A DNA stretch of 27,628 nt, taken from contig JAVJQW010000021.1 of the NCBI GenBank assembly GCA_040218735.1, forward strand, positions 1-27,628, read 5' to 3'. A program made the translations under genes and the position numbers. A model generated the notes under the pieces. It was not told where the DNA came from, ran no database searches, and was given only the letters and a program-made list of their open reading frames with translations. Below, piece after piece: positions 7,553 to 27,628 of the stretch. Source of the DNA: Deltaproteobacteria bacterium (GTDB lineage: Bacteria > Myxococcota > Kuafuiibacteriia > Kuafuiibacteriales > Kuafuiibacteriaceae). Every line of letters starts with the position of its first letter. Within the stretch, counting starts at the first letter, position 1.

Positions 7553-8404
7553 TCACCAGGCGGGGTACTCGAGCACGCGGACCACCTCGTCGTAGACGAC
7601 CTCCGCCTCCGTCAGCCCGCCGGGTCCCGCGTGCGGGACGCCGCTGACCTCGATGTTCTCGGCGCCGTCGAGCGTCGACGAGGCCACCGGCACCGTCCCG
7701 TCGTCGGTCGAGAAGATCGAGACCCACGCGAGGTCGCCGGGCGTGGCGGGGTCGGCGTTGAGGTTCGTGAGGAGCTCGTTGGTCGGGCAGAGCTCCTGCC
7801 ACACGCAGACGTCGAGCGGGTTGAGGCACGCGAGGCGATTGCCGTGGTGGAGGCCGCCGAGCGTCACGTACGTGTTCACCTGCGCGGTGCCGCCGAGCAC
7901 CTTGAGGAAGTGGCGAGACGACAGCGTGCCCATCGAGTGCGCGACCAGATCGATGCGCGAAGCGCCCGTCGTCTGGAGGATCCGCGCGACCTCGTCGGCG
8001 ATCGTCTGTGCGTTGTCGACGTTGCAGCCCCACCGAGGGTCCTCGAAGTCCAGCGCGAAGAGGCGGTTCGCGGGCCAGCCGTCGTCGACCAAACGCATGC
8101 GCATCACGTCGAACTCCGCGCTGCTCCCGTTGATGCCGTGGACGAAGAGCACCGGATCTGGCAGCGCCGTCATCGGACCCGCGTCGCGCGTCACCCCCGC
8201 GTCGCGCATGACGCCGGCGTCGTGGTTCATGCCGGCGTCGCGCATCGTCCCTGCATCGCGCATCACCCCAGCGTCGCCCATGACTCCGGCGTCGCGCGCC
8301 ACGCCGGCGTCCTCGACGACGTCCGCCGCGTCCGGCGGCGACGTCATCACGGCGGCTTCGCCACAGGCCGCCAACCACGGCACGAGCAGCCACACGCCAC
8401 GCAT
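7553..8404 (-). CDS. secreted lipase/esterase lipoprotein (alpha/beta hydrolase, Bacillus LipA-like family)
   Basis: Lipobox VPWLAAC. Oxyanion region LFVHGINGSS and nucleophile elbow AHSMG, as in LipA (VHGIGG / AHSMGG). After the lipobox there is a 6-aa tandem repeat DAGV(M/A/T)R x7.5. An alternative start lies at 8446. Confidence 0.7.
   Translation of the reverse strand: MRGVWLLVPWLAACGEAAVMTSPPDAADVVEDAGVARDAGVMGDAGVMRDAGTMRDAGMNHDAGVMRDAGVTRDAGPMTALPDPVLFVHGINGSSAEFDVMRMRLVDDGWPANRLFALDFEDPRWGCNVDNAQTIADEVARILQTTGASRIDLVAHSMGTLSSRHFLKVLGGTAQVNTYVTLGGLHHGNRLACLNPLDVCVWQELCPTNELLTNLNADPATPGDLAWVSIFSTDDGTVPVASSTLDGAENIEVSGVPHAGPGGLTEAEVVYDEVVRVLEYPAW
8181..8312 (-). repeat. in-frame 18-nt tandem repeat (about 7.5 copies) encoding DAGxMR hexapeptide linker of the lipase
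   Basis: Plus-strand units read cgcatgacgccggcgtcg, tggttcatgccggcgtcg, cgcatcgtccctgcatcg, cgcatcaccccagcgtcg, cccatgactccggcgtcg and so on. Confidence 0.7.
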
Positions 8405-8456
8405 CGCGCGAAGGTACCGCTCGCCGCCGCGCGTGCCGACGGGCATCTGACGGAGG

Positions 8457-11756: not shown

Positions 11757-13028
11757 ATGAGCCATTCAATCCGCGCAGGTTGGGTCGTCGCTGCGGCGAT
11801 CACCTGCCTCGTTGCCTGTGAAGAGCGTAAGCCGAAGTCCGCGGCGAAAGCCGAGGAGGCCACAAAAGCCGCGCCCGCGCGGGTTCAGGGGGTGACCGAC
11901 ACGACGATCAAGGTGGGCAGCTACGGTCCCCTGTCGGGGCCGGCGGCGGCCTGGGGCGTGGTCCAGCGCAGCCTGGAGGCATACTTCGCGTTCATCAACG
12001 ATCAGGGCGGCATCCACGGCCGAAAGATCGAATTTGTGTACCGCGACGACGGCTACAGCCCCGCGAAGACGCCGGGGGTGGTGCGCGAGCTCGTCGAAAA
12101 GGAGCAGGTCTTCGCGATGGTCGGCGGGATCGGCACGGCCAACGGCCGCGCGGTCGCGGACTACCTCGACGAGAAGGGGATCCCGGTGTTCACCCCGGCG
12201 ACCGGCGACGCGTTCTTCGGGTCCGGCGCGAAGAAGAACACGTACACGGCGTTCCTCCCGTACGCGGTCGAGGGGCAGATCATCGGCGAGTACATCGCGA
12301 AGGAGCTGCGGTCGCTGAAGGTCGGGGTGCTGTACCAGGACGACGACTTCGGCGCGCAGGGTGTGGAGGGGCTGACGAAGGGCCTCGAGAAGTTCGGCGG
12401 CGCGGTGCAGGTCAAGGTGTCGTGTCTGCCGACCGACACGGATCTGTCCGGGCAGGTGAGTCAGATCGCGGCGAGCGCGCCGGAGGTGCTGGTGATCTTC
12501 ACGGCGCCGAAGCAGGCGATCATGGCGGTGAAGCAGCTGCACGCGATGAAGAAGAAGCCGCACATCCTCACGAGCTACGTGTTGATGGACCCGATCATGT
12601 TCAAGCTCGCGGGCGCAGAGGTCTGGGACGGGACGATCTCCAGCGCGGTCACACCGCTCGGGGACGACGAGGTCGCGCAGGTCGTGAAGTTCCGCGAGAT
12701 CCTCGAGAAGTACGGCGAGGGGAAGCTGCCCATCGGCGCGTTCTCGATGGCGGCGTTTGCGATCGGGGTGCCGTTCGTCGAAGCGCTCGAGCGCGCCGGC
12801 AAGGACCTCACGCCGGCGAAGCTCTACGAGGCGTTGGAGAGCCTGAAGGGCTTCGACGAGGCCGGACCGTACATCGAGGGCGGCGGCTTCAGCCCGGTGC
12901 TGACGTTCGGCAAGGGCGACCACCAGGGCCCGGACTCGCTGTACTTCGTGCGCGGTGAAGGCGGGAAGTGGGTGAAGGCGTCCGACTGGATCACGTTCGA
13001 GGGTGCGAAGAAGGAGGCGGCGAAGTGA
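11757..13028 (+). CDS. Leu/Ile/Val-binding protein family (LivK-like, type 1 periplasmic binding protein) lipoprotein
   Basis: Lipobox ITCLVAC. GGAGGTG SD 6 nt upstream. Typical PBP1/ANF-receptor fold sequence (TIKVGSYGPLSGPAAAWG.., VFAMVGGIGTANGRAVADYLDEKGIPVFTPATGD). No permease or ATPase genes are adjacent. Confidence 0.75.
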   Translation: MSHSIRAGWVVAAAITCLVACEERKPKSAAKAEEATKAAPARVQGVTDTTIKVGSYGPLSGPAAAWGVVQRSLEAYFAFINDQGGIHGRKIEFVYRDDGYSPAKTPGVVRELVEKEQVFAMVGGIGTANGRAVADYLDEKGIPVFTPATGDAFFGSGAKKNTYTAFLPYAVEGQIIGEYIAKELRSLKVGVLYQDDDFGAQGVEGLTKGLEKFGGAVQVKVSCLPTDTDLSGQVSQIAASAPEVLVIFTAPKQAIMAVKQLHAMKKKPHILTSYVLMDPIMFKLAGAEVWDGTISSAVTPLGDDEVAQVVKFREILEKYGEGKLPIGAFSMAAFAIGVPFVEALERAGKDLTPAKLYEALESLKGFDEAGPYIEGGGFSPVLTFGKGDHQGPDSLYFVRGEGGKWVKASDWITFEGAKKEAAK

Positions 13029-13576
13029 AGAACGCGTGGGTCTTGGGTTTGGCGCTGTCGCTCGTTCCGAGCCTCGCGTTCGCGAGCAAACGCGAAGGCG
13101 TGTCCATGAAGGACGCCGCGAAGGTCGGCGGCAAGAAGGTCGTGCTCAACGGGATGGGCGTGCGGCAGGCGACGGTGTTCAACGTGAACGTCTACGTCGC
13201 GGGGCTGTACCTCGAAGCGAAGACACGTGACCCGGCGGAGGTCACGAAGGACGGCGCGAAGAAGATCCTCTTCCACTTCGTGCGCGACGTGGACCTCGAC
13301 GATCTGCAGGACGCGTTCGAGGAGGGCTTCGCGAAGAACGGCGGCGGCGCGCTGAAGGATCGCGTGAAGAAGCTCAACGCGATGATGTCCGACATGAAGG
13401 ACGGCCAGCGCATGTCGCTCGAGTACGCGCCCGGCACCGGGACGACCGTGTTCGTGCTCGGGAAGAAGAAGGGCGTGATCCCCGGCGAAGACTTCATGAA
13501 GGTGCTGTTCACCATCTTCGTCGGCCCCAAGGCGCCCAACCGCCTGCTCCGCGACGGCATGCTCGGCAAAGCCTGA
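13025..13576 (+). CDS. chalcone isomerase-like family protein (secreted)
   Basis: The GTG start overlaps the upstream stop (GTGA). Signal peptide VKNAWVLGLALSLVPSLAFA. Bacterial CHI-like signature VVLNGMGVRQATVFNVNVYVAGLYLE. Confidence 0.65.
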   Translation: MKNAWVLGLALSLVPSLAFASKREGVSMKDAAKVGGKKVVLNGMGVRQATVFNVNVYVAGLYLEAKTRDPAEVTKDGAKKILFHFVRDVDLDDLQDAFEEGFAKNGGGALKDRVKKLNAMMSDMKDGQRMSLEYAPGTGTTVFVLGKKKGVIPGEDFMKVLFTIFVGPKAPNRLLRDGMLGKA

Positions 13577-18030: not shown

Positions 18031-19263
18031 ATGCTCGGCGCCGTGACGCGGCGGTGGCTCGTGCTGTGGTGCGTCCTCGTCGCGCTCGGGACGCTGCACC
18101 CGTTCGTTCTGGATCCGCGCCCGGTCGTGGTGCCCTCCGACTCGTTCTTCGTGCCGCGCTTCAAGGGGCTCGATCCGCCGTTCAACGTGCTGATGTTCGT
18201 GCCGCTCGGGGCGCTGCTCTCGCGCCTCGGGTTGCGCACCGCGATGGCCGCGCTCGTCGGGTTGCTGGTGAGCGGTCTGATCGAGCTGTCGCAACACTTC
18301 ATCGCGTTTCGGGTGCCGGTCTTCGAAGACCTCGTCTTCAACACCGTCGGTGCGGCGTTGGGGGCGCGGGGGGTGCACGTCGTGGAGCGCGTCGGCCGCT
18401 TCGTGGAACGACACCTCCGCGTCCCAATCTTCGTGGTGACGACGGGGGTCGTCGTGTGGTCCGCCGCGCCGCCGCGCGTCGACGCGCGCCTGTGGTACTG
18501 GGCGGACTACGCCGAGCTGATCGTCGGGCGCGAGCAGCCCGGCAACTACGCCTACGCCGACGAGGTCCACGCCGCGCGACTGTACGCGGGGGCACACGCG
18601 CCCGATGCGCTCCCAGAAGCGATCTGGTCGTACGGCGTCGACGACGAAGGCCGCTTCCCCGCGATCACCGAACGCATCGAGGCGACGGGCGCGTTCACGA
18701 TCGACGTCGACTTCGACGCCGCACCCCGCGACGAGCTCCTCCGACGCATCTTCACGTACTCGGCCGGGGTGCAGCGCAGGAACTTCCTCTTCGGCGCGCG
18801 CGGGGACGAGCTCGTGTTCCGCGTGCGCACGCGCGTCACGCCGATCGTCGGGCTGTTCACCAACCTCGAAGAGCCGTTGACGCTCCCGCGTCCGCCCGGA
18901 CGTGCCCGCGTCACGATCGCTTACGACGTCGGCGTGGTTCGCGCGTGGGTCGACGGTGCGCCCGTCGCGACGAAACACTTCAAGCTCCCCGAGCACAACG
19001 GCGTGCGGACGTTCTGGCTGCCGCGCGACGCGCTCGGCGTGTGGCTGTTTTGGTTCTCGGCGGGGCTGGTCGTCGCAGCGGGGGCGGCGTTCCTGAGGCG
19101 ACGCTGGGCGATAGCGATCGCGCTCGGGATCGGCGTCGCGTTGGAGATCGCGCAGGTCGTGATGTTCGACCGCGCGCCCGATCTCACCGCCGTCGTTCCA
19201 CTCGTCGTCGGCGCGATGCTCGGCGCATGGTCAGCGCGAAGCCGAGCCACAGCAGACCCGTGA
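18031..19263 (+). CDS. VanZ-family membrane protein with a central beta-rich domain and two C-terminal TM helices
   Basis: The VanZ-like N-terminus has 4 helices (WLVLWCVLVALG, FNVLMFVPLGALL, LVSGLIELSQHF, LVFNTVGAALG). C-terminal TMs GVWLFWFSAGLVVAAGAAF and AVVPLVVGAMLGAW. Alternative GTG start at 18007. Confidence 0.6.
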   Translation: MLGAVTRRWLVLWCVLVALGTLHPFVLDPRPVVVPSDSFFVPRFKGLDPPFNVLMFVPLGALLSRLGLRTAMAALVGLLVSGLIELSQHFIAFRVPVFEDLVFNTVGAALGARGVHVVERVGRFVERHLRVPIFVVTTGVVVWSAAPPRVDARLWYWADYAELIVGREQPGNYAYADEVHAARLYAGAHAPDALPEAIWSYGVDDEGRFPAITERIEATGAFTIDVDFDAAPRDELLRRIFTYSAGVQRRNFLFGARGDELVFRVRTRVTPIVGLFTNLEEPLTLPRPPGRARVTIAYDVGVVRAWVDGAPVATKHFKLPEHNGVRTFWLPRDALGVWLFWFSAGLVVAAGAAFLRRRWAIAIALGIGVALEIAQVVMFDRAPDLTAVVPLVVGAMLGAWSARSRATADP

Positions 19264-21253
19264 TCCCCGACGGCGTGCGCGTCGTGTTCGTGCAGGCGCA
19301 ACCGTCCTCCGCCTCCGGGGGCGACGGCGTGAGGAGCGGTGGTCGTACGATACGCCCGCCGTCCGCGACGCCGCCGTCGGCGCTCGGGCCCGCGTCGCGT
19401 CCCACGCTCCCGTCGTCGGGTGGGGCGGCGTCACGGCTCTCACCGGAGTCCGGCACGCCGCCGTCACGCATCATCACCGGCGACAGCAAGAACAGCTCGC
19501 CGTAGCGCTCCGGCTCCTTGCCGGCGCCGATCCCCGCGGTCCACTCCGTCCACCCGACGCGCCCGGCGCCGTCGGCGTCGTTCACGAGGAACGAGAACCC
19601 GATCAGCTCGCCCGCGAACCACGACGCCTGCGGCAGCGTCGCGTGGGGGATCGCGATCTCGTAGCTCGTCGTCGTCCCCTGGCGCATCGACACCACGCTC
19701 ATCGTCGTCGGGCCCGTGCCCTGTTCGCGGAACACCCGCGTCGTCGAGCCGTCCGTCGAACGTGCGTAGGTGAGCTCGTGGTCGTCGGCGTCGTAGCCGG
19801 TCCCGCCGGTCTGCAGCGGATCGAACGCGAGCTGCACGCTGTCGCCCATCCACATCGTCTCGAGGGGGGCGTCGTTGTCGTGCACGTCGTCGGTGACTTC
19901 GATCCCGAAGTAGAGGTTCGTCGCATCCCACGCGGCGGCGATGCGCACGGCGTGGTCGTCCGTACCGAGCTCTTCGGTGCCACGCCACGACGTCGTCGGG
20001 ACGGGCATCCACCCCATGAGCTCGGAGGGGTCGCCGTCGATCGTCGGCGTCGCGACGGGGAGGCTGATGCGCATCCGCGGCGGGTCGTCGGACTCGTCGT
20101 CGTCCTCCGCGCCGGAGCACCCGCGGTCGTCGCCGTCGACGCGCCCGTCTCCGTCGTTGTCGACGCCGTCGCCGCACTCGGGAGGTGGCGTTGCGCTCAC
20201 CACCGCGGGGTTGTCGACGATGAACTGCTTCAGCGCGGCGAAGGCCGGCTTGAGTCGGAAGTCGCCAGGGAAGTTGCGTTGCCCCGCGACGCCGCCGGTC
20301 GGGCGCATCAAACCGAACCCATCGATCGTGCACGTGGGCTGGTCCACGCCGCAGTCCGTGACCTCGTAGAAGAACGTGTTCGTGACCCACGCGCGCTGCA
20401 GCTGTTCTTCGAGCGCGCGCCGCACGTAGATGGCTTGCAGCTGCTCCTCACCCGCGTCCCCGATCGGCGTCGCGCGGTAGCCGGTCTCGGTGATCCACAC
20501 GTCGCCCGTCCAGCCGGCGTCGTCGAGGAGCTGGCGGAGGTCACGTCGCGTGAACGTGAAGCGCTGGTCGTCGAGGACGTTGATGTAGCTGTCGCCTTCC
20601 CAGATGCGCCAGCCGGTCTCCTCGAAGTCCTGGTAGATGTGGTGCGTGATGATGTCCCACGCGCCGGGTGTGCGCGTGAGGACTTCTTCCAGCGCGTCGT
20701 CCGCGTCGCCGACGTTCGCGAGGTCCGGCCCGAGCACCACGCAGTCCGCGCACGCGGCGCGCAACGCGGCGGCGCCGGGGTTCACGATGATCGTCGCGTA
20801 CTCTTCGAGCGAGCCCTCCCAGAAACCTTGGAGGTTCGCTTCGTTCCACAGCCCGAAGTGTGTCACGCCGAGCGCCCGGTAGTGCGTGACCGCGTTGGTG
20901 ACGAAGTTGGTCCACTCCGTCGAAGCGTTCGGGACGTCGTTGCCGGCGTTGCCGTCCGAGTCGCCGTGGCGCGGCACCCAGCTCGGCGTGTACGCGAGCG
21001 TGAGGTAGACGTTCAGCCCGGACGCGACCGCGTCCGACACCGCGGCGTCGAGGAACGTCCACTGGTAGACGTTCGGCGCGGTCTCGAGCTGGAACCAGTT
21101 GGCGTCCATCCGCACCCACGTCACGCCGAGGTCCGCCGCAGCATCGATGAACGCGGGCGTCCCGTTGTGCACGTTGAGGCCGACGTCGTTGTCACCGGGC
21201 GCCGCGAGCGCCGAGGCGGGGAACAGGAGCAGGAGGAGGGCCGCGCGTCGCAC
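19184..21253 (-). CDS. secreted clan GH-A glycoside hydrolase (GH5/GH39-like TIM barrel) with CBM9-like domain and MYXO-CTERM-like sorting tail
   Basis: A GTG start gives signal VRRAALLLLLFPASALA. The catalytic-region motif is GLWNEANL. The C-terminal beta-sandwich resembles CBM9 (WDATNLYFGIEVTDDVHDND..DSVQLAFDP). The tail is DGCACTNTT..GITGLLWLGFALTMRRASRRRR: a Cys motif, a hydrophobic helix and an Arg-rich end. Confidence 0.7.
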   Translation of the reverse strand: MRRAALLLLLFPASALAAPGDNDVGLNVHNGTPAFIDAAADLGVTWVRMDANWFQLETAPNVYQWTFLDAAVSDAVASGLNVYLTLAYTPSWVPRHGDSDGNAGNDVPNASTEWTNFVTNAVTHYRALGVTHFGLWNEANLQGFWEGSLEEYATIIVNPGAAALRAACADCVVLGPDLANVGDADDALEEVLTRTPGAWDIITHHIYQDFEETGWRIWEGDSYINVLDDQRFTFTRRDLRQLLDDAGWTGDVWITETGYRATPIGDAGEEQLQAIYVRRALEEQLQRAWVTNTFFYEVTDCGVDQPTCTIDGFGLMRPTGGVAGQRNFPGDFRLKPAFAALKQFIVDNPAVVSATPPPECGDGVDNDGDGRVDGDDRGCSGAEDDDESDDPPRMRISLPVATPTIDGDPSELMGWMPVPTTSWRGTEELGTDDHAVRIAAAWDATNLYFGIEVTDDVHDNDAPLETMWMGDSVQLAFDPLQTGGTGYDADDHELTYARSTDGSTTRVFREQGTGPTTMSVVSMRQGTTTSYEIAIPHATLPQASWFAGELIGFSFLVNDADGAGRVGWTEWTAGIGAGKEPERYGELFLLSPVMMRDGGVPDSGESRDAAPPDDGSVGRDAGPSADGGVADGGRIVRPPLLTPSPPEAEDGCACTNTTRTPSGITGLLWLGFALTMRRASRRRRVERRR

Positions 21254-21303: not shown

Positions 21304-24300
21304 TCAGTACCGCCAGCGAACCTCGAGGTAGTCCGCGGCGATCGCGCCGTCGCCCCCGGCGGCCGTCGTGAGGTTCGCACGACACCCGATCCGAGCGCGC
21401 CCGTCGCCGCCGATGATGGCTTGGGCGAACGTCGCGGCGTCGGCGATCGACGGCGCGAACTCGAGTGACGATGCCGACGGGCTCGCCGTCGTGTTTGTGC
21501 CGAGGTCGGTCGTCGTGGTGCCCGTGAGAACGTAGAGCGCGGCGCCGTCGCCCGTCACGCCGTACCCGGCGAAGCTCCCGCCGCAGGACGCACGCACCCT
21601 CACATCCTCGAGCGCGGCGACGCTGACGTTCGAAGGGAGCGCGGCGGACAGCTCGGTGCGCGGATCGACGGGGAGCGCGAGCTCCCAGGTGTCGTCGGCC
21701 ACGCCGTCCAATTGGCTGATGTCGAAGCCGCCGTGCACGATGAAGCGGCTCCGCGCGTCGTCGAAGACGAGGTTGCTCAAGTGGCGCGCCCGCGGGATGC
21801 GACCGACGGACGGCATTCGCAGGGACCAGTCCGCGCCGTCGTACGCCCAGACCTCCGTGTGGGTGATCCGCATGGCCATGTCGAACGTGGTCGATCCGCT
21901 GAACAGGACCAGCTCCCGACGCGCCGGGTCGTACGCCAGCTTTCCGCGCTGTGGTGGTGCGTTGGCCGTGACGACCTCCGTCCAGGTGGACCCGTCCCAC
22001 TCCCAGGTGTCGGTCCGTTGGTAGCCGCCGTACAGGACGACACGTTCGCGCACGGGGTCGTCGCCGAGCGCGGCGTACAGTCGCGACGGCGGGTTCGTGC
22101 CGACGGGCGTGACGTCGGTCCACGCCGCGCCGTCCCAGGTCCAAGTGTCGCCGTTTCGGTCGAAGAGGAGCGTGACGCCGCGCGCGGCGTCATACGCTGT
22201 TGCGAGGAACTGCGCCGGGGGCCTCGCGCCCGTCGCCGGCGTGATGTCGGTCCAGCTCGTCCCGTCCCACGCCCACGTCGCGACGAGGCTGCTCCCGGTC
22301 CGCGTTCCGAACGCCGCGACGTGCCCTCGCGCCGCGTCGTACGCCGCGTCCGCCACGAACGTCGCGGACGGCGGGCCCGACGCGACCTGGTTCCACGCGT
22401 TGCCGTCCCAGATCCAGGTCTCATCGACGTCGAGCGTCAGCGTCTCGAGCCGCGCGGCGTCGTACACCACGGGGCCGTCCACCTCGACGGGGCTGGTCTC
22501 GACCGGGGTCACGTCTGTCCACGCGACGCCGTCCCACGTCCACAGATCCGTATGTTCGAAGAACGAGTTCCCGCCGTACAGCACCACCCGGCCGATGCCG
22601 GCGTGGTACACCATCGCCGCGCTCTCGCGTGGTTCCGGGCGAGGACCGACCGGCGTCACCTCCGTCCACGAAGTCCCGTCCCACTCCCACACGTCGTCGA
22701 GGTAGTTCGGCGTCGCGTAGCCGCCGGCGAGCACGACGACGCCACGCCCGGCGTCGTAGGCCATCGCTTGCCCCGAGCGCGCGCTGGGACGTGGACCCGC
22801 CGGATTCTCGAGGCTCCACGTTCCGCCGCTCAGCGTCCACAGCTCGTCGGGGCCCTCTCCACCACCGAACACGACGAGCTCCTGCCGAGCGACGTCGAAC
22901 GCCATCGAGTGTCCCGCCGTTCGTGCGGGGGCACCCGTCGTCGGGACGACCGACCAGTTCGTGCCGTCCCAGCTGTAGAGGTTCCTGTCCGCCGGGACGC
23001 CGAAGTCGATGAAGCCGGCGAACAGGACCACGCGAGCGAGGACCGGATGGTAGGCCATCGCGTGGAATTCGCGTGCTTCCGGCGGCGTGGTCGGGGTGCC
23101 GAGGAGCCAGCGTGTGCCGTTCCACATCCAGGTGTCGTCGCGTGAGGGGAACGCGTCGCCACCGAACAGGACCGTCTCGCCGCGTTGCGCGTCGTACGCG
23201 ATCGACGTGAGCTGCCGGCCGTACGGGCGCGGCCCCACGGGGGTGCGATCGGACCACACCGAGCCGTCCCACTCCCAGACGGCCTCGTCGGTCCACACCA
23301 CGGTGTGAACCAGCCGGTCTCGCTGCGCGTCGTAGGTGAGCGTCGGGAAGGTGTCCGCGTGGGGGTTGTGGCGCTCGGCGACGCGGTACCACACGTCGTC
23401 GGGCGTGTGGACGAGGACCGACGTGTCGCGCGCCGCGACGCTCGAGGTCACGATCGGTGCGCCGATGTTCGACCCGTCGCCGAACGCAAACGTGTGCGGG
23501 CTCGCGGCGAGGTCCGCAGACGAAGCGACGTACCACGAACGTTCGATGCGAACCGGCTGGGACGGTACTTCACTCGCGCCGATCGCGACGACGTCGACGT
23601 AGGCGGCGTCGCTCGATGCGAGCGCGAGGTCCACGCGTGACCACGAACCGTCGGCGGCCGGGAGGATCCAACCCGACACCGGCGCGCCCTCTGCGAACAC
23701 ACGAATCGCCGCGGCCGGTCCGCTCGCGAGGGCGAACGTGTCCGGCGGGAGCGCGGCGACGTCCTCGAGCTCGTCCAACGGAGCGAGGGTGTAGCGCGCG
23801 GGCCCGGCCGGGATCGTGAAGCTGCCGAGATCCTCCGCGGTGAGGTTCACGTGCGGCGCGCGCACGTAGCTCACCTGATCCTGGTCGACGAGCAAGGTGG
23901 GCGCTGACGTCGCGATCTGAAACGCGGCCGTGGCGGTCACGGTGTTCCCCGCGCGATCCTCGAGGAGCTCGGCGACGGCGTACGTACCGTCGGCACCTCC
24001 GAACGCCGCGGTGATCTGCGCGGCGTAAGTCGCGCCGGTCGGCGAAGCGCTCCCGGTGATCTGCGTGAGGGTGAGGACGTCCGCGCCGTTCGTCGCGTCG
24101 ATCGTGGCCGGCAGCGCCTCCAGCGGTTCGTCGGCGTCGAGCGCGACGCTCACGGTGCTCCCGATCGTCGCCACGTCGAGCGTCGGCAGCACGACGCCGA
24201 CGTTCGGCGCTAGCGCCACCATCGTCGTGACCTCGGGCGACCGGGTGTCGAGGACGAGCTCGAGCTGCACCGGAGCAGAGGTCTGTCCGATGGCGTCCAC

Positions 24301-24888
24301 GAAGCGCGCGAAGACGACGCGCGCGCAGTCGTCACGACGCGGGTGGGGGCTGGCCGGTCCAAGGCCGCAGTCGTCGGTGAGGCCGACGTTCAGATCCCAC
24401 GTGACGTCGTAGCTGCACGGCTGCGTCGAGCCCGGCGTGTCGTCGCAGGGGTCGGCGGTGCGCGTGGCGGTCCCGGTGAACGCGAAACCGGCGCAGGCCG
24501 GCGCGCTCGCGGTGAGGGCCGCGCACAGCGAACGCTGCGGGTCGAACGCGGCGTCGTTCGAGATCTCCGCGTGCACGCCGTCGGAGGTGATCCGGAGGAC
24601 AGCCTCGGCGTCGGCCAAGGGGCTTCGTCCGAGGTAGGTCAGCGCGGCGGACGGCACGGGCACGCCGCCGTCCCGCGGGGGCCCGGCGTCGCGCGGCCCG
24701 GCGTCCCGATCGCCTGCATCACGGTCTCCGGCGTCGCGGTCTCCGGCGTCACGGTCTCCTGCGTCCCGGACGGTGCCGGCGTCTCGCGCCGAGCCGGCGT
24801 CGCGCTGCGGCGTGGGCGGCTCGGTGCCCGAGCAGGCCGCGAAGAGCACCGTGAGGAGAGCGATCGGGGAGTTCGTGCTGCGGGGCAT
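21304..24888 (-). CDS. large lipoprotein with Ig-like N-terminal region and at least 11 Kelch-type beta-propeller repeats
   Basis: Lipobox LTVLFAAC. RDAGD linker repeats. Repeated blades of about 45-50 aa, each with W.WDG..W..v.p.g..P..R...a.ayD..r...vlFGG (for example VWEWDGSVWSDRTPVGPRP, TWTWDGAAWTDVTPVG, VWAYDGADWSLRMPS). The start in the ORF track at 25062 is an upstream extension. Confidence 0.75.
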   Translation of the reverse strand: MPRSTNSPIALLTVLFAACSGTEPPTPQRDAGSARDAGTVRDAGDRDAGDRDAGDRDAGDRDAGPRDAGPPRDGGVPVPSAALTYLGRSPLADAEAVLRITSDGVHAEISNDAAFDPQRSLCAALTASAPACAGFAFTGTATRTADPCDDTPGSTQPCSYDVTWDLNVGLTDDCGLGPASPHPRRDDCARVVFARFVDAIGQTSAPVQLELVLDTRSPEVTTMVALAPNVGVVLPTLDVATIGSTVSVALDADEPLEALPATIDATNGADVLTLTQITGSASPTGATYAAQITAAFGGADGTYAVAELLEDRAGNTVTATAAFQIATSAPTLLVDQDQVSYVRAPHVNLTAEDLGSFTIPAGPARYTLAPLDELEDVAALPPDTFALASGPAAAIRVFAEGAPVSGWILPAADGSWSRVDLALASSDAAYVDVVAIGASEVPSQPVRIERSWYVASSADLAASPHTFAFGDGSNIGAPIVTSSVAARDTSVLVHTPDDVWYRVAERHNPHADTFPTLTYDAQRDRLVHTVVWTDEAVWEWDGSVWSDRTPVGPRPYGRQLTSIAYDAQRGETVLFGGDAFPSRDDTWMWNGTRWLLGTPTTPPEAREFHAMAYHPVLARVVLFAGFIDFGVPADRNLYSWDGTNWSVVPTTGAPARTAGHSMAFDVARQELVVFGGGEGPDELWTLSGGTWSLENPAGPRPSARSGQAMAYDAGRGVVVLAGGYATPNYLDDVWEWDGTSWTEVTPVGPRPEPRESAAMVYHAGIGRVVLYGGNSFFEHTDLWTWDGVAWTDVTPVETSPVEVDGPVVYDAARLETLTLDVDETWIWDGNAWNQVASGPPSATFVADAAYDAARGHVAAFGTRTGSSLVATWAWDGTSWTDITPATGARPPAQFLATAYDAARGVTLLFDRNGDTWTWDGAAWTDVTPVGTNPPSRLYAALGDDPVRERVVLYGGYQRTDTWEWDGSTWTEVVTANAPPQRGKLAYDPARRELVLFSGSTTFDMAMRITHTEVWAYDGADWSLRMPSVGRIPRARHLSNLVFDDARSRFIVHGGFDISQLDGVADDTWELALPVDPRTELSAALPSNVSVAALEDVRVRASCGGSFAGYGVTGDGAALYVLTGTTTTDLGTNTTASPSASSLEFAPSIADAATFAQAIIGGDGRARIGCRANLTTAAGGDGAIAADYLEVRWRY
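24668..24806 (-). repeat. in-frame 15-nt tandem repeat (about 9 copies) encoding the RDAGD/RDAGP pentapeptide linker of the Kelch lipoprotein
   Basis: On the plus strand: ggtctccggcgtcgc, ggtctccggcgtcac, ggtctcctgcgtccc and so on. The encoded protein is RDAGSARDAGTVRDAGDRDAGDRDAGDRDAGDRDAGPRDAGPP. Confidence 0.7.
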
Positions 24889-24971
24889 GCTCGCTTTCAA
24901 GTGCCGGCCGGCGCCTTGGCGTTCAATGCGTTTGACGCCGGGTGCGTTGTGGCCACCTTGGGCCTTCCGCC

Positions 24972-24990
24972 GTGCGGCGTCCAGCCGCAC
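24972..24990. promoter_or_regulatory. perfect 7-bp stem / 5-nt loop hairpin (gtgcggc gtcca gccgcac) in the divergent intergenic region, 27 nt upstream of the vWA gene ATG
   Basis: Inverted repeat read from the sequence. It lies between the Kelch start (24888) and the vWA start (25017). The SD AAGGGAG sits at 25003-25009. Confidence 0.2.
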
Positions 24991-25016
24991 AATTCCACAT
25001 CGAAGGGAGCCCACCC

Positions 25017-26867
25017 ATGGTGCTCGAGAACCTCGGCCCGGCCGAGACCATTCTGCAGACACTTCTGACCTACAGCGACCACATGGTCCACAACCGCCCC
25101 GGCATGGTCGTGACGGACGCCGGCACCGCGACGAAGGTGCGCTGGATCCCGGTGACCCACCGCGAGGAGGACGGACAGAAGGTCGTCTACCAGCTCCGCT
25201 CGGTACGCAACCGCACGCAGCGTTCTCGCGCCGGCGTGCTGCAGGACGACGGGCGGATCCTCGACGGCGGTCGCGTCGTCGGTCGTTACCAGCGCCCGGG
25301 CCTCTTCGCCGAGGTCGCGGCGTGGATGTACAAGCAGATCGCGGACGTCTACGAGCTCGACAACGAGTTCGCGGCGCGCTGGGCGTCGTTTGCGTACGCC
25401 CAGGAGCACCGCGACCTGAAGGTCGCGCTCGCGGCGTTCATGCTCGTGCAGTCGCGCAAGGGCGACCCGGTCCGCGAGGGCGGCGAGGTGCTCTTCTTCG
25501 ACGAGGACTACCGCGACGTCGGCGAGGCGATGATCCTGCTCTACGACAAGAAGAAGAAGGACCTGAACCCGAAGATGATCCTCCGGGTGCACGACCTGCT
25601 GTCGTTGGATCCGATCGCCCAGATCAACCGTGACCTCGGCTTCGGCCGGTCGGCGCGCGCGCCGTTCTACGGGCGCTGGTCGAAGGCCGTCGAGAAGTGG
25701 CTCGCGTACCGCGAGGACAACGTCCAGCTCCTCGAGGGCCTCGTGAAGGCGGGGTACCGCACCACGGTCATGGAGCTCGCGCGTCGTTCTCGCTACAAGC
25801 CGAAGACGGACAAGTTCTTCGAGCTGCTCCGCTGGAAGCAGAAGCAGTCGAAGGCGGGGCACCGTGACCTGGCGATCGGCGAGGACGTCGCGGCGGCGCA
25901 GACCTGGGATGACCTCACCGAGCGTGAGATCTGCGAGCGCATCGAGGAGGAGAAGCCGGGTTACAAGCGCATCGTCGGCATGCTGCCGAAGTCGATCGGT
26001 CTCACGCGGGCGATCCTCGCGGTGGCGATCGAGGCCGGCTCGCTGTCGGACAAGGATCTCGTGATCCTCACGCCGACGCTGGAGGCCCTCGGGATGCTGG
26101 AGATTCCGGAGCTGAAGTCGCGCTGGGCGTCGGCGGTCAAGGCCGCCGAGGACATGCGCGCGGCGAACATCGCCAAGCGCGTGAAGTCGCAGGAGGCGAA
26201 GGCCCAGCTCGAGGAGGCCGCGGAGGACGTGCTCAAGACGGCCGTGGAGGAGGTCGCGCGGAACATCCGCGTCTACTTCATGGTCGACATCTCGGGTTCG
26301 ATGGAGAACGCCATCGAGCAGGCCAAGGCGTACGTCGCCAAGTTCCTGCCGGCGTTCCCGGCCGAGCGGCTGCACATCAGCGTGTTCAACACGATGGGTC
26401 GCGAGGTGGAGCTGAAGCACCACTCGCAGTCCGGCGTGGAGCATGCATTCCGCGGCATCCGCGCGGGCGGTGGCACCGACTACGGCGCGGGCGTGCGTGC
26501 GCTCGCCGAGCACAAGCCGGCTGAGGACGAGGACGTGCTCTTCATCTTCATCGGCGACGAGCAGGCGAGCCCGTTCGACAACGCCGTGGTGCAGGCGGGG
26601 CTTCGTCCGATGGCGTTCGGGCTCGTTCAGGTGCAGTCGCAGTGGGGCGTGGGCAACTGCGTCCAGCAGACGGCGGCGCGCCTGGGCATCCCGTGCTTCA
26701 TGATCGACGAGGCGACGTTCGAAGACCCGTACGCGATCCCGCGTACGGTTCGCGACCTCGTCGCGTCGACGCCCGTTGGACAGGTTGCGGCCGGTGCGCG
26801 TCGTGAGGCGCTCGTCGACCGCATCATGAAGACGGAGCTTCTGAAGAAGCCGGCGTGGGCGGAGTAG
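25017..26867 (+). CDS. von Willebrand factor A (vWA) domain protein with about 430-aa N-terminal helical domain of unknown function (Ro60/TROVE-like architecture not excluded)
   Basis: Strong SD AAGGGAG 8 nt upstream. C-terminal vWA with MIDAS motif VYFMVDISGSM, then GGTDYGAG and FIFIGDEQ. No Walker A, so it is not a chelatase- or MoxR-type ATPase. The N-domain is helical and charged. Confidence 0.7.
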   Translation: MVLENLGPAETILQTLLTYSDHMVHNRPGMVVTDAGTATKVRWIPVTHREEDGQKVVYQLRSVRNRTQRSRAGVLQDDGRILDGGRVVGRYQRPGLFAEVAAWMYKQIADVYELDNEFAARWASFAYAQEHRDLKVALAAFMLVQSRKGDPVREGGEVLFFDEDYRDVGEAMILLYDKKKKDLNPKMILRVHDLLSLDPIAQINRDLGFGRSARAPFYGRWSKAVEKWLAYREDNVQLLEGLVKAGYRTTVMELARRSRYKPKTDKFFELLRWKQKQSKAGHRDLAIGEDVAAAQTWDDLTEREICERIEEEKPGYKRIVGMLPKSIGLTRAILAVAIEAGSLSDKDLVILTPTLEALGMLEIPELKSRWASAVKAAEDMRAANIAKRVKSQEAKAQLEEAAEDVLKTAVEEVARNIRVYFMVDISGSMENAIEQAKAYVAKFLPAFPAERLHISVFNTMGREVELKHHSQSGVEHAFRGIRAGGGTDYGAGVRALAEHKPAEDEDVLFIFIGDEQASPFDNAVVQAGLRPMAFGLVQVQSQWGVGNCVQQTAARLGIPCFMIDEATFEDPYAIPRTVRDLVASTPVGQVAAGARREALVDRIMKTELLKKPAWAE

Positions 26868-26870
26868 TCG

Positions 26871-27628
26871 ATGGGGTGGCGTGATCTTCTGCAGGCCGAG
26901 GGTGAGACGATCGTCGCGCCCTGGGTCGGTGGGAGCTCCATCACGCTCGCGTCACGCCGGTGGCGCCTCGTGGCGCCGCCGGCGGACCCCGGCTGGTATC
27001 GCTTCGCCGTGAGAGGGCGGGACGTCTCGGTCGAGGCGCCCGCGGAGCCCGACTTCGACGTGTTCGTCACGGTGCGAGTGGGGCACCTGGTGGGCGACCG
27101 TCTCGTCCCGGACGAGACGGTCGCTCATGCCGATCCCGTTTTGATCGCGACTTCGGGCTCGCGCGTTCACCTGCTCCCGCCGGGGCTCGATCGTTTCGCG
27201 CGGATCTCGGCGGGGCGCGTGGTCCCGGACGGGCGGTGGTTCTTCAAGGAAGAGGAGTTTCCGCTGGGGCCGGAGGACGAGGTGCTCACGGCGTGGCAGG
27301 ACGAGCTGCCCTCGACTTCGCACATCCGCGGGGTGCCGCCTGCGCTCGACGCGGCGTTTCGGTTGGAGCGCTGGCGTCGGGAGGAAGCGGCACGGCGCAG
27401 GGCGGAGCTCGAGGCGGCGCGTCGTCGCGAGGAGCTCGCGCGTACGCTCGGCGACGGCGCTGGGCGGCGCGTGATCGCGGCGCAGGACTTCGAGGCCGCG
27501 GCGCGGGCGGCGCTCGCCGTCGGTGGCGCGCGGCTGCTGGAGCATCGGGCGTCGGTGAACGCGGGGGAGATGGTCGTGCGGTTCCGCCTCGACGACATGC
27601 GCTTCGAGTGCACGTGCGACGCGCGCAC
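26871..27628 (+). CDS. hypothetical protein, partial (runs off the window end), translationally coupled to the vWA gene
   Basis: ATG lies 3 nt after the vWA stop. The frame stays open with good codon usage for 758 nt (MGWRDLLQAEGETIVAPWVGG..). It ends in FECTCDAR, a possible start of a CxC..C.H zinc-finger (SWIM-like), which I cannot verify. Confidence 0.5.
   Translation, partial: MGWRDLLQAEGETIVAPWVGGSSITLASRRWRLVAPPADPGWYRFAVRGRDVSVEAPAEPDFDVFVTVRVGHLVGDRLVPDETVAHADPVLIATSGSRVHLLPPGLDRFARISAGRVVPDGRWFFKEEEFPLGPEDEVLTAWQDELPSTSHIRGVPPALDAAFRLERWRREEAARRRAELEAARRREELARTLGDGAGRRVIAAQDFEAAARAALAVGGARLLEHRASVNAGEMVVRFRLDDMRFECTCDAR

Follow-up and report, generated by a model that had tools for sequence, protein, structure and literature searches.

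A predicted Ro60-like protein and Y-RNA-like genes share a conserved cassette with a putative ubiquitin-like activation and processing module in Myxococcota and jumbo phages

The DNA considered here (the window) comprises 27,628 nucleotides, positions 1 to 27,628 of contig JAVJQW010000021.1 (assembly GCA_040218735.1) from a bacterium assigned to the Myxococcota, and its right-hand end holds the beginning of a gene cassette whose first product is a 616-aa protein with a von Willebrand factor A (vWA) domain. The exact protein was found on the 11.5-Mb source contig, where its gene heads five tightly spaced genes on the same strand. The window includes the first gene whole and most of the second, and the rest of the cassette lies beyond the window edge. 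A sequence-only reading of the window had proposed that the two visible genes form a two-component system, but the conserved unit is larger, with four or five proteins and noncoding RNAs (ncRNAs). Features are listed below in window coordinates, which equal coordinates in L001 (the cassette locus on the source contig) plus 15016. The 300-aa second product is called X300.

24889–25016, divergent intergenic region of 128 bp, containing the ribosome-binding site GAAGGGAG; the upstream minus-strand gene ends at 24888 (source-contig gene calls)
25002–25009, + strand, ribosome-binding site GAAGGGAG, 7 nt before the ATG, read directly from the sequence
25017–26867, + strand, Ro60-like vWA protein, 616 aa; ATG at 25017, stop codon TAG at 26865–26867
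26286–26300, + strand, DxSxS motif (D424-I-S-G-S428) of the metal ion-dependent adhesion site (MIDAS) of the vWA domain, invariant in 36 homologs
26871–27628, + strand, X300, first 252 of 300 codons in the window, ending in FECTCDAR at the window edge
27609–27617, + strand, X300 codons for C247-T-C249 (the “CTC” of FECTCDAR), first half of a CxC...C...H cluster
27773 (window-equivalent), + strand, end of the X300 gene on the source contig
27780–28157 (window-equivalent), same strand, JAB/JAMM peptidase, 125 aa, on the source contig
28159–28425 (window-equivalent), same strand, 88-aa putative ubiquitin-like precursor ending in RPKTPFG-AAP, on the source contig
28422–29000 (window-equivalent), same strand, minimal ThiF-type E1, 192 aa, on the source contig
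about 29098–29245 and 29276–29432 (window-equivalent; L001 14082–14229 and 14260–14416), two tandem Y-RNA-like genes

The 616-aa protein is arranged as a TROVE-like N-terminal region (aa 1 to about 413) followed by a vWA domain (aa about 417–583) with a complete MIDAS. The Pfam family VWA_2 matches aa 419–510 (E 1e-7), and the MIDAS residues D424, S426, S428, T487, and D514 are invariant among 36 homologs, which confirms the C-terminal vWA/MIDAS domain recognized in the sequence-only reading. Databases hold over 1,600 relatives of the protein; the best 120 are full-length with 60–81% identity, and members of the family are currently labeled “vWA domain-containing protein” or “Mg-chelatase subunit ChlD.” A Pfam scan of the first ~415 aa found neither an ATPase motif nor a Pfam domain. 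The AlphaFold model (pLDDT 79) has a β-rich subdomain (aa about 29–92), then helices (98–413), then the vWA domain. Thus, the earlier description of this N-domain as helical and devoid of ATPase motifs is correct with regard to the motifs but only partly so with regard to the fold, given the β-rich subdomain that precedes the helices.

When the predicted structure was compared by Foldseek with entries of the PDB, the top seven were all Ro60/TROVE structures (E 2.5e-7 to 9e-6 over 534–567 columns), among them the TROVE-domain crystal structure 9kop, the Ro autoantigen entries 1yvp, 1yvr, and 2i91, and Ro60 of Thermus phage phiLo. Structures consisting only of a vWA domain were placed below these entries. 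A PHROG labeled “RNA-binding protein” also matches aa 389–516 weakly. PDB profile searches with the full protein and with its N-domain returned only vWA matches or noise and no Ro60; because a sequence-level TROVE match is absent, the Ro60 assignment rests on the predicted structure together with the RNAs described below. The model suggests that the vWA protein is a divergent Ro60 homolog with a predicted Ro60-type fold over its full length, in agreement with the likeness to the Ro60 layout (TROVE plus vWA) that had been suspected from the window. Pfam currently misses the putative TROVE-like part of this family.

X300 has about 1,350 relatives with 49–75% identity and no Pfam match at E values up to 5. 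Its architecture includes an N-domain of β structure that resembles the OB (oligonucleotide/oligosaccharide-binding) folds of RNA-binding proteins, a long Arg/Glu-rich helix, and a C-terminal domain with the cysteine motif C247-x-C249-x12-C262-x3-H266, wherein the three Cys residues are invariant and the His is mostly conserved. The X300 gene starts at 26871, 3 nt past the stop of the vWA gene, and runs off the window at FECTCDAR, as previously stated. Each of the two proteins has more than 1,300 full-length homologs, and their genes share contigs and lie side by side wherever a locus reaches far enough; the proposed tight coupling to a conserved, unannotated partner is upheld. FECTCDAR had also been taken as the possible start of a CxC...CxH SWIM-type zinc finger; the cysteine cluster exists, whereas a SWIM finger was rejected because the spacing CxCx12Cx3H is not the canonical CxCxnCxH and Pfam SWIM does not match.

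The three genes that follow encode the JAB, the 88-aa protein, and the E1. The JAB matches Prok-JAB (E 6e-5), and the residues E3...H50-x-H52-x8-S61-x2-D64 are conserved in 10 loci. The E1 matches ThiF (E 2e-25) and carries GxGxxG, DxDRVE.KN, GKxK, and DCxDN..R motifs; in 16 loci its adenylation motifs are conserved together with a TCExG Cys. The highest-scoring matches are to UbaA (top in NCBIfam), ThiF, MoeB, and the E1 half of CBASS Cap2, and we infer that the TCExG Cys corresponds to the residue that forms the thioester in UbaA or Cap2. The RPKTPFG motif of the 88-aa protein is present in 81 loci, with the source genome adding AAP after the Gly. At the loci lacking a JAB gene, the open reading frame (ORF) for the small protein stops right after this Gly in 7 of 7 cases, and in about 63 of the 74 JAB-containing loci it continues for 1–60 extra, unconserved residues. 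The probability that all seven JAB-less loci would end at Gly by chance is about 9e-6 (hypergeometric, hand-computed). As judged from these ORFs, the pattern is the signature of a putative Gly-terminated modifier or carrier matured by its own protease. Searches of Pfam and PDB profiles found no sequence match between the 88-aa protein and known ubiquitin-like proteins (Ubls), and its identification as MoaD or ubiquitin was rejected after hhalign and the PDB profile search came back empty.

The loci without a detectable JAB within the examined stretch, where the small protein ends at Gly, are L005, L006, L007, L008, L009, L013, and L023. L008 and L013 end near their last cassette genes. In L006, L007, L009, and L023 the cassette is surrounded by tRNA genes, and these four have the look of phage contigs that were binned into metagenome-assembled genomes (MAGs) of Myxococcota. 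Some extensions past the Gly are long and domain-like (L060, L083, L054, L057, L093, and L066) and would be freed by JAB cleavage. Those of L060 and L083 carry a Cys pair near the C-terminus (CPHC and CHTC, respectively), the L054 and L057 ORFs end in similar Cys-rich tails, and the extensions of L093 and L066 have a poly-acidic tail and a Lys-rich segment, respectively.

In the 442-bp gap after the E1 gene in L001, Rfam reports a tRNA hit that spans a large insert (30.4 bits) as well as a partial YrlA hit (RF02553; 27.4 bits, E 0.001), with a second copy at 20.5 bits. The gap holds two tandem units of ~150 nt, each with a 9–12-bp basal stem formed from its own 5′ and 3′ ends. An internal loop carries conserved CUUACAAGCA on its 5′ side and ACUCG on its 3′ side, and is followed in order by a T-arm (GGUUCGAAUCC), a closed 7-bp acceptor hairpin, a D-arm, and an anticodon-like hairpin. 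This architecture is common to the Y-like RNAs of 29 loci (minimum free energy folds). Compensatory changes are present in 21 of 25 consensus pairs (RNAalifold, 23-sequence alignment), and the median basal-stem duplex energy is −17.4 kcal/mol when a unit's own ends are paired, as opposed to −7.0 when the ends come from different loci. With a covariance model, about 57 full-length matches scored above 50 bits, spread over about 45 loci, many of them outside the training set; matches to positions 41–114 only were discarded as junctions between neighboring tRNA genes. The Y-like RNAs lie mostly right after the E1 gene, with some located before the Ro60-like gene or inside a tRNA array, and they adjoin the operon in L001 and about 45 further loci, as Y RNAs adjoin Ro60. 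A permuted tRNA-like arrangement has been described for YrlA (Chen et al. 2014, PMC4201824). The cassette RNAs have this Y-RNA (YrlA) design, comprising a covarying basal stem and a permuted tRNA-like domain. We consider the Ro60–Y RNA identity of the first protein and the RNAs to be likely.

Copy number and placement of these RNAs differ among loci. The closest cellular relative, L105 (81% protein identity, other flanks), has 5–7 tandem Y-like units after E1 (12180–13447), compared to two in the source genome, and copy number is therefore highly variable. In one high-GC clade, Y-like matches (25–51 bits) lie upstream of the Ro60-like gene and not after E1 (L012 5462–5660; L018 5440–5610; L019 5164–5340 and 5524–5700; L013 359–527; L016 463–616). 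In the most divergent locus, L024 (Verrucomicrobia MAG label, tRNA array), the Ro60-like gene and X300 are separated by a 1-kb gap because two Y-like RNAs (7846–7998 and 8273–8424) sit between them. Two Nannocystales-type loci, L020 (10151–10223) and L022 (10179–10251), have an apparently ordinary tRNA (Arg-ACG and Thr-CGT, respectively) directly after E1 in the usual place of the Y-like RNA; with a covariance-model score of only 16.8 bits, it is either a tRNA or a divergent Y-like RNA.

Among 185,579 species genomes that were scanned, 21 cassette loci were recovered, mostly labeled Myxococcota and including one in the cultured Paraliomyxa miuraensis (L020), and several of the loci labeled as MAGs are probably binned phage contigs because tRNA arrays are present. 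IMG/VR contributed 75 viral contigs, most of 130–620 kb, and GenBank contributed one, Virus Rctr197k. The gene set and order are kept in about 80 loci overall. The five genes are collinear in about 65 phage loci, often with small ORFs or homing endonucleases between them, and phage and cellular loci share 40–66% protein identity. Among the 46 phage loci examined, 33 have at least six tRNA genes within 8 kb and only 3 have none. These tRNA genes are on the same strand except in L066 (in part) and L088, and the last tRNA often ends 100–300 bp before the Ro60-like gene, with tRNAs resuming after E1. A transfer-messenger RNA (tmRNA) gene is also present in four loci. In a neighbor-joining tree the cellular copies are scattered among phage copies, which suggests repeated transfer between jumbo phages and Myxococcota. 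The cassette has apparently been exchanged with jumbo phages.

The phage tmRNA genes are found a few kb at most from the cassette and in its tRNA-rich region (L055 17472–17832; L065 1276–1651; L066 15806–16163; L096 16746–17114). Homing endonucleases of the GIY-YIG, LAGLIDADG, and HNH types are inserted between cassette genes while the order is left intact (L026 11907–12929; L028 16847–17656; L026 7644–8213). ARAGORN also reports tRNA-like genes near the cassette that have abnormal anticodon loops (2- or 4-base “anticodons”) and may be more tRNA mimics or tRNAs resembling frameshift suppressors (L066 7761–7832; L089 6110–6187; L026 16711–16781; L100 9872–9945; L007 10244–10316; L021 8043–8119).

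In the clearly cellular loci conservation is limited to the cassette genes, and even close relatives have different flanks; a neighborhood survey found no further conserved neighbors beside the cassette. On the source chromosome the flanks are ordinary metabolic and envelope genes, the next gene beyond the cassette being a convergent acyl-CoA dehydrogenase gene. The divergent neighbor within the window (21304–24888, − strand) encodes a Kelch/β-propeller protein of ~1,190 aa with a signal-peptide-like N-terminus and a run of DAGDR repeats, and is not kept beside the cassette in other genomes. The 689-aa protein encoded at 19184–21253 (− strand), which has a CBM9 module followed by a Gly/Asp-rich, Cys-containing C-terminal tail, is unrelated to the cassette. 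The window contains no tRNA genes, and a search for Y-like RNAs found none within the window itself. A promoter scan found no sigma-70 consensus upstream of 25017; consensus scans for promoters and terminators are uninformative because the DNA is GC-rich.

Taken together, these data favor a cassette that encodes a phage-derived Ro60–Y RNA surveillance ribonucleoprotein (RNP) coupled to a ubiquitin-like activation and processing module, a reading to which we assign a probability of roughly 60%. That the Ro60-like protein is functionally coupled to the JAB, Ubl-like protein, and E1 in some manner is very likely, whereas protein conjugation as the chemistry of the module is a tentative proposal with somewhat less than an even chance of being correct. 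In this RNP, the Ro60-like ring would bind the basal stem of the Y-like RNA and capture damaged or misfolded RNAs. In phages the captured RNAs would most plausibly come from the phage's own tRNA pool, because the cassette sits in a tRNA array. The tRNA-like module of the Y-like RNA might tether a partner, for which X300 is the leading candidate in view of the likeness between its N-domain and the OB folds of RNA-binding proteins. The JAB would trim the small-protein precursor to expose its C-terminal Gly, and the E1 would adenylate this Gly and, via its conserved Cys150, transfer the small protein onto a target that belongs to the RNP or is brought to it. A docking site for the small protein may be provided by the vWA MIDAS, in the way that the Rea1/midasin MIDAS receives UBL domains.

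Several observations weigh against this model. Pfam TROVE does not match the 616-aa protein, the TM-scores of its predicted structure are modest (0.25–0.47), and an exhaustive N-domain profile search of 1.84 billion representatives returned 206 proteins that all belong to its own family or are fragments. TROVE likewise has no match in ten of the most distant of these 206 relatives. The YrlA matches score far under the Rfam gathering score (27 versus 69 bits) and cover model positions 29–81 only. For the module, hhalign of the 88-aa protein against MoaD and ubiquitin gives nothing, the small protein ends in FG rather than GG, 11 JAB-containing loci already have an ORF that ends at Gly, and no E2 is recognized in the cassette. 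In addition, placement in tRNA arrays could be inherited synteny of one phage lineage and not functional coupling.

Some of the same facts would be explained if the cassette were a sulfur relay, wherein the 88-aa protein is a carrier of the MoaD/ThiS/TtuB type that is adenylated by the E1 and thiocarboxylated at its Gly, and the JAB serves only to mature the precursor. The sulfur would end up in thiolated nucleosides, either those of phage tRNAs or those of the Y-like RNA, with the X300 Cys residues taking part in the transfer step. A JAB encoded with a C-terminally extended carrier is a known sulfur-carrier arrangement (QbsD/QbsE, CysO/Mec+). This explanation also fits the top E1 scores against the SAMP-activating UbaA, ThiF, and MoeB, the dispensability of the JAB where the ORF ends at Gly, the location in tRNA arrays, the lack of a detected E2, and the invariant Cys residues of X300. 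However, sulfur carriers end in GG, and in the small-protein family an invariant FG takes that place. Neither the cassette nor its conserved neighborhood contains a PP-loop thiolase, a rhodanese, or a cysteine desulfurase, X300 has no PP-loop or other Pfam match, and the Ro60-like protein is left unexplained. We consider both the relay itself and the proposed delivery to tRNA or Y-like RNA, with X300 in the transfer step, to be unlikely.

A route that we regard as improbable keeps the particle and changes the acceptor, such that the activated Gly is passed not to a lysine but to a hydroxyl group of RNA, or else to a partner that is bound to RNA on the Ro60–Y RNA particle. Esterification to the 3′ end of a tRNA or tRNA-like RNA, comparable to aminoacylation and to the oxyester chemistry of Bub pathways, would be one example. 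Compatible with this reading, the cassette lacks an E2, lies within tRNA arrays, and always carries tRNA mimics. If true, jumbo phages would use protein–RNA tagging to mark, protect, or triage tRNAs.

The vWA protein could instead act mainly as a Ubl receptor or scaffold in the manner of Rpn10 or the midasin MIDAS, with no role in RNA binding, and the tRNA-like elements would then be decayed remnants of the phage tRNA array. The missing sequence-level TROVE match is in keeping with this idea, but Foldseek ranks full-length Ro60 first, and the basal stem with CUUACAAGCA and ACUCG is kept in cellular loci that have no tRNA array. Moreover, the closed acceptor hairpin, the permuted order of the arms (T-arm, acceptor, D-arm), and the covarying basal stem argue that the Y-like RNAs are not decayed tRNAs. 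We give this explanation only a small chance.

The chance is slimmer still that the cassette is a cellular antiphage or conflict system in which a vWA sensor is paired with an uncharacterized effector, as the sequence-only reading had suggested. vWA proteins and Ubl conjugation do occur together in FtsH-ternary vWA-MoxR conflict systems (PMC7159879), the E1 resembles the E1 part of CBASS Cap2 (PADLOC E1-E2 models, E 1e-14), and related bacteria carry the cassette at differing chromosomal sites, like mobile defense genes. Yet none of the PADLOC models fits the vWA protein, X300, or the small protein; the E1 is the only clear match, confined to the E1 half of the Cap2 models, and the JAB is matched marginally. 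MoxR, FtsH, RING, E2, CD-NTase, and effector domains are all absent from the cassette, its flanks are not defense genes, and most copies are in jumbo-phage genomes. Identities of at least 60% among the closest 120 clusters, and of 40–66% between phage and cellular copies, are also unlike those of fast-evolving defense sensors. The proposal of a defense-island system is unsupported. Pairing with CobT/CobS or MoxR was rejected, as no AAA+ gene is present in the cassette or among conserved neighbors, the cobaltochelatase (NCBIfam) match is weak (23 bits versus a cutoff of 779), and it covers the vWA part only. The downstream ORF, for its part, is long and conserved.

Ro60–Y RNA particles are conserved from bacteria to humans, and their control is poorly understood. 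The association across about 80 loci of a Ro60-like protein and Y-like RNAs with a protease, a Ubl-like protein, an E1, and an OB-like protein would offer a handle on the regulation of such particles. It also marks an unstudied jumbo-phage function inside tRNA arrays, which bears on how host tRNA-cleaving defenses are set against the phage tRNA supply.

The combination of Ro60 and YrlA is already known from bacteria and phages (PMC4201824), and a Ro60 has been described for Thermus phage phiLo (PMC12135203). The cassette resembles the Ro60 (Rsr)/YrlA system in its predicted TROVE-like ring joined to a vWA domain with a MIDAS, its occurrence in bacteria and phages, and its adjacent ncRNA with basal stem, T-arm, closed acceptor hairpin, and D-arm. 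Unlike Rsr, the cassette protein has no Pfam TROVE match, is isolated in sequence, and carries an extra β-rich N-terminal subdomain. The RNA differs from YrlA in its CUUACAAGCA and ACUCG motifs, and GNCGAA (PMC4201824) is not among the conserved columns of the 23-sequence alignment. The partners also differ, as Rsr has been described with RtcB/RtcA or PNPase and the cassette protein occurs with X300, the JAB, the Ubl-like protein, and the E1.

With CBASS Cap2/Cap3, Bil, and Bub (PMC10097602, PMC10557695, PMC11601596) and the Ubl/E1/JAB neighborhoods of Iyer et al. 2006 (PMC1779556), the cassette shares a JAB/JAMM peptidase, a ThiF-type E1 with an intact adenylation site and a conserved Cys, and a precursor-encoded small protein whose C-terminal Gly is conserved. 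In contrast to these systems, the cassette has no recognizable E2, its E1 is only 192 aa and unfused, its small protein terminates in FG, and the module is tied to a predicted RNA-binding RNP rather than to a CD-NTase or other effector. The FtsH-ternary vWA-MoxR systems (Kaur et al. 2020, PMC7159879) likewise place a vWA protein in an operon with a JAB, an E1, and a Ubl, but they contain MoxR, FtsH, a RING E3, a Ubl-E2 fusion, EAD1 adaptors, and caspase-like effectors that the cassette does not have. Their vWA protein carries a β-propeller, whereas that of the cassette carries the predicted TROVE-like ring.

The survey of prokaryotic Ubl neighborhoods by Iyer et al. 2006 (PMC1779556) makes no mention of vWA, Ro60, TROVE, or Myxococcus. 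TROVE proteins are mentioned for a few jumbo phages in a review of that group, with no ubiquitin-like link (PMC7824862), and an Asgard virus preprint lists Ro60 and three ThiF genes separately. Full-text searches, the coverage of which excluded Burroughs & Aravind 2016 and the 2020 Ro60 Annual Review, found no paper linking Ro60 with an E1, a JAB, or a Ubl. Ro60–Y RNA particles and ubiquitin-like modules are both of known kinds, and what appears new here is a predicted Ro60–Y RNA particle with a putative ubiquitin-like module attached.

In the Urm1/Uba4, SAMP2/UbaA, and TtuB/TtuC systems, Ubl-dependent tRNA thiolation employs carriers that end in GG and requires a PP-loop thiolase (Ncs6/TtuA). 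The cassette is similar in having a small Gly-terminated carrier and a ThiF-type E1 in a tRNA-related context, and differs in its lack of a PP-loop thiolase and in the FG end of the carrier. To the settings in which prokaryotic ubiquitin-like machinery is known, namely sulfur transfer, CBASS, and Bil/Bub, the cassette would add a fourth, which is mainly carried by viruses and has no recognizable E2.

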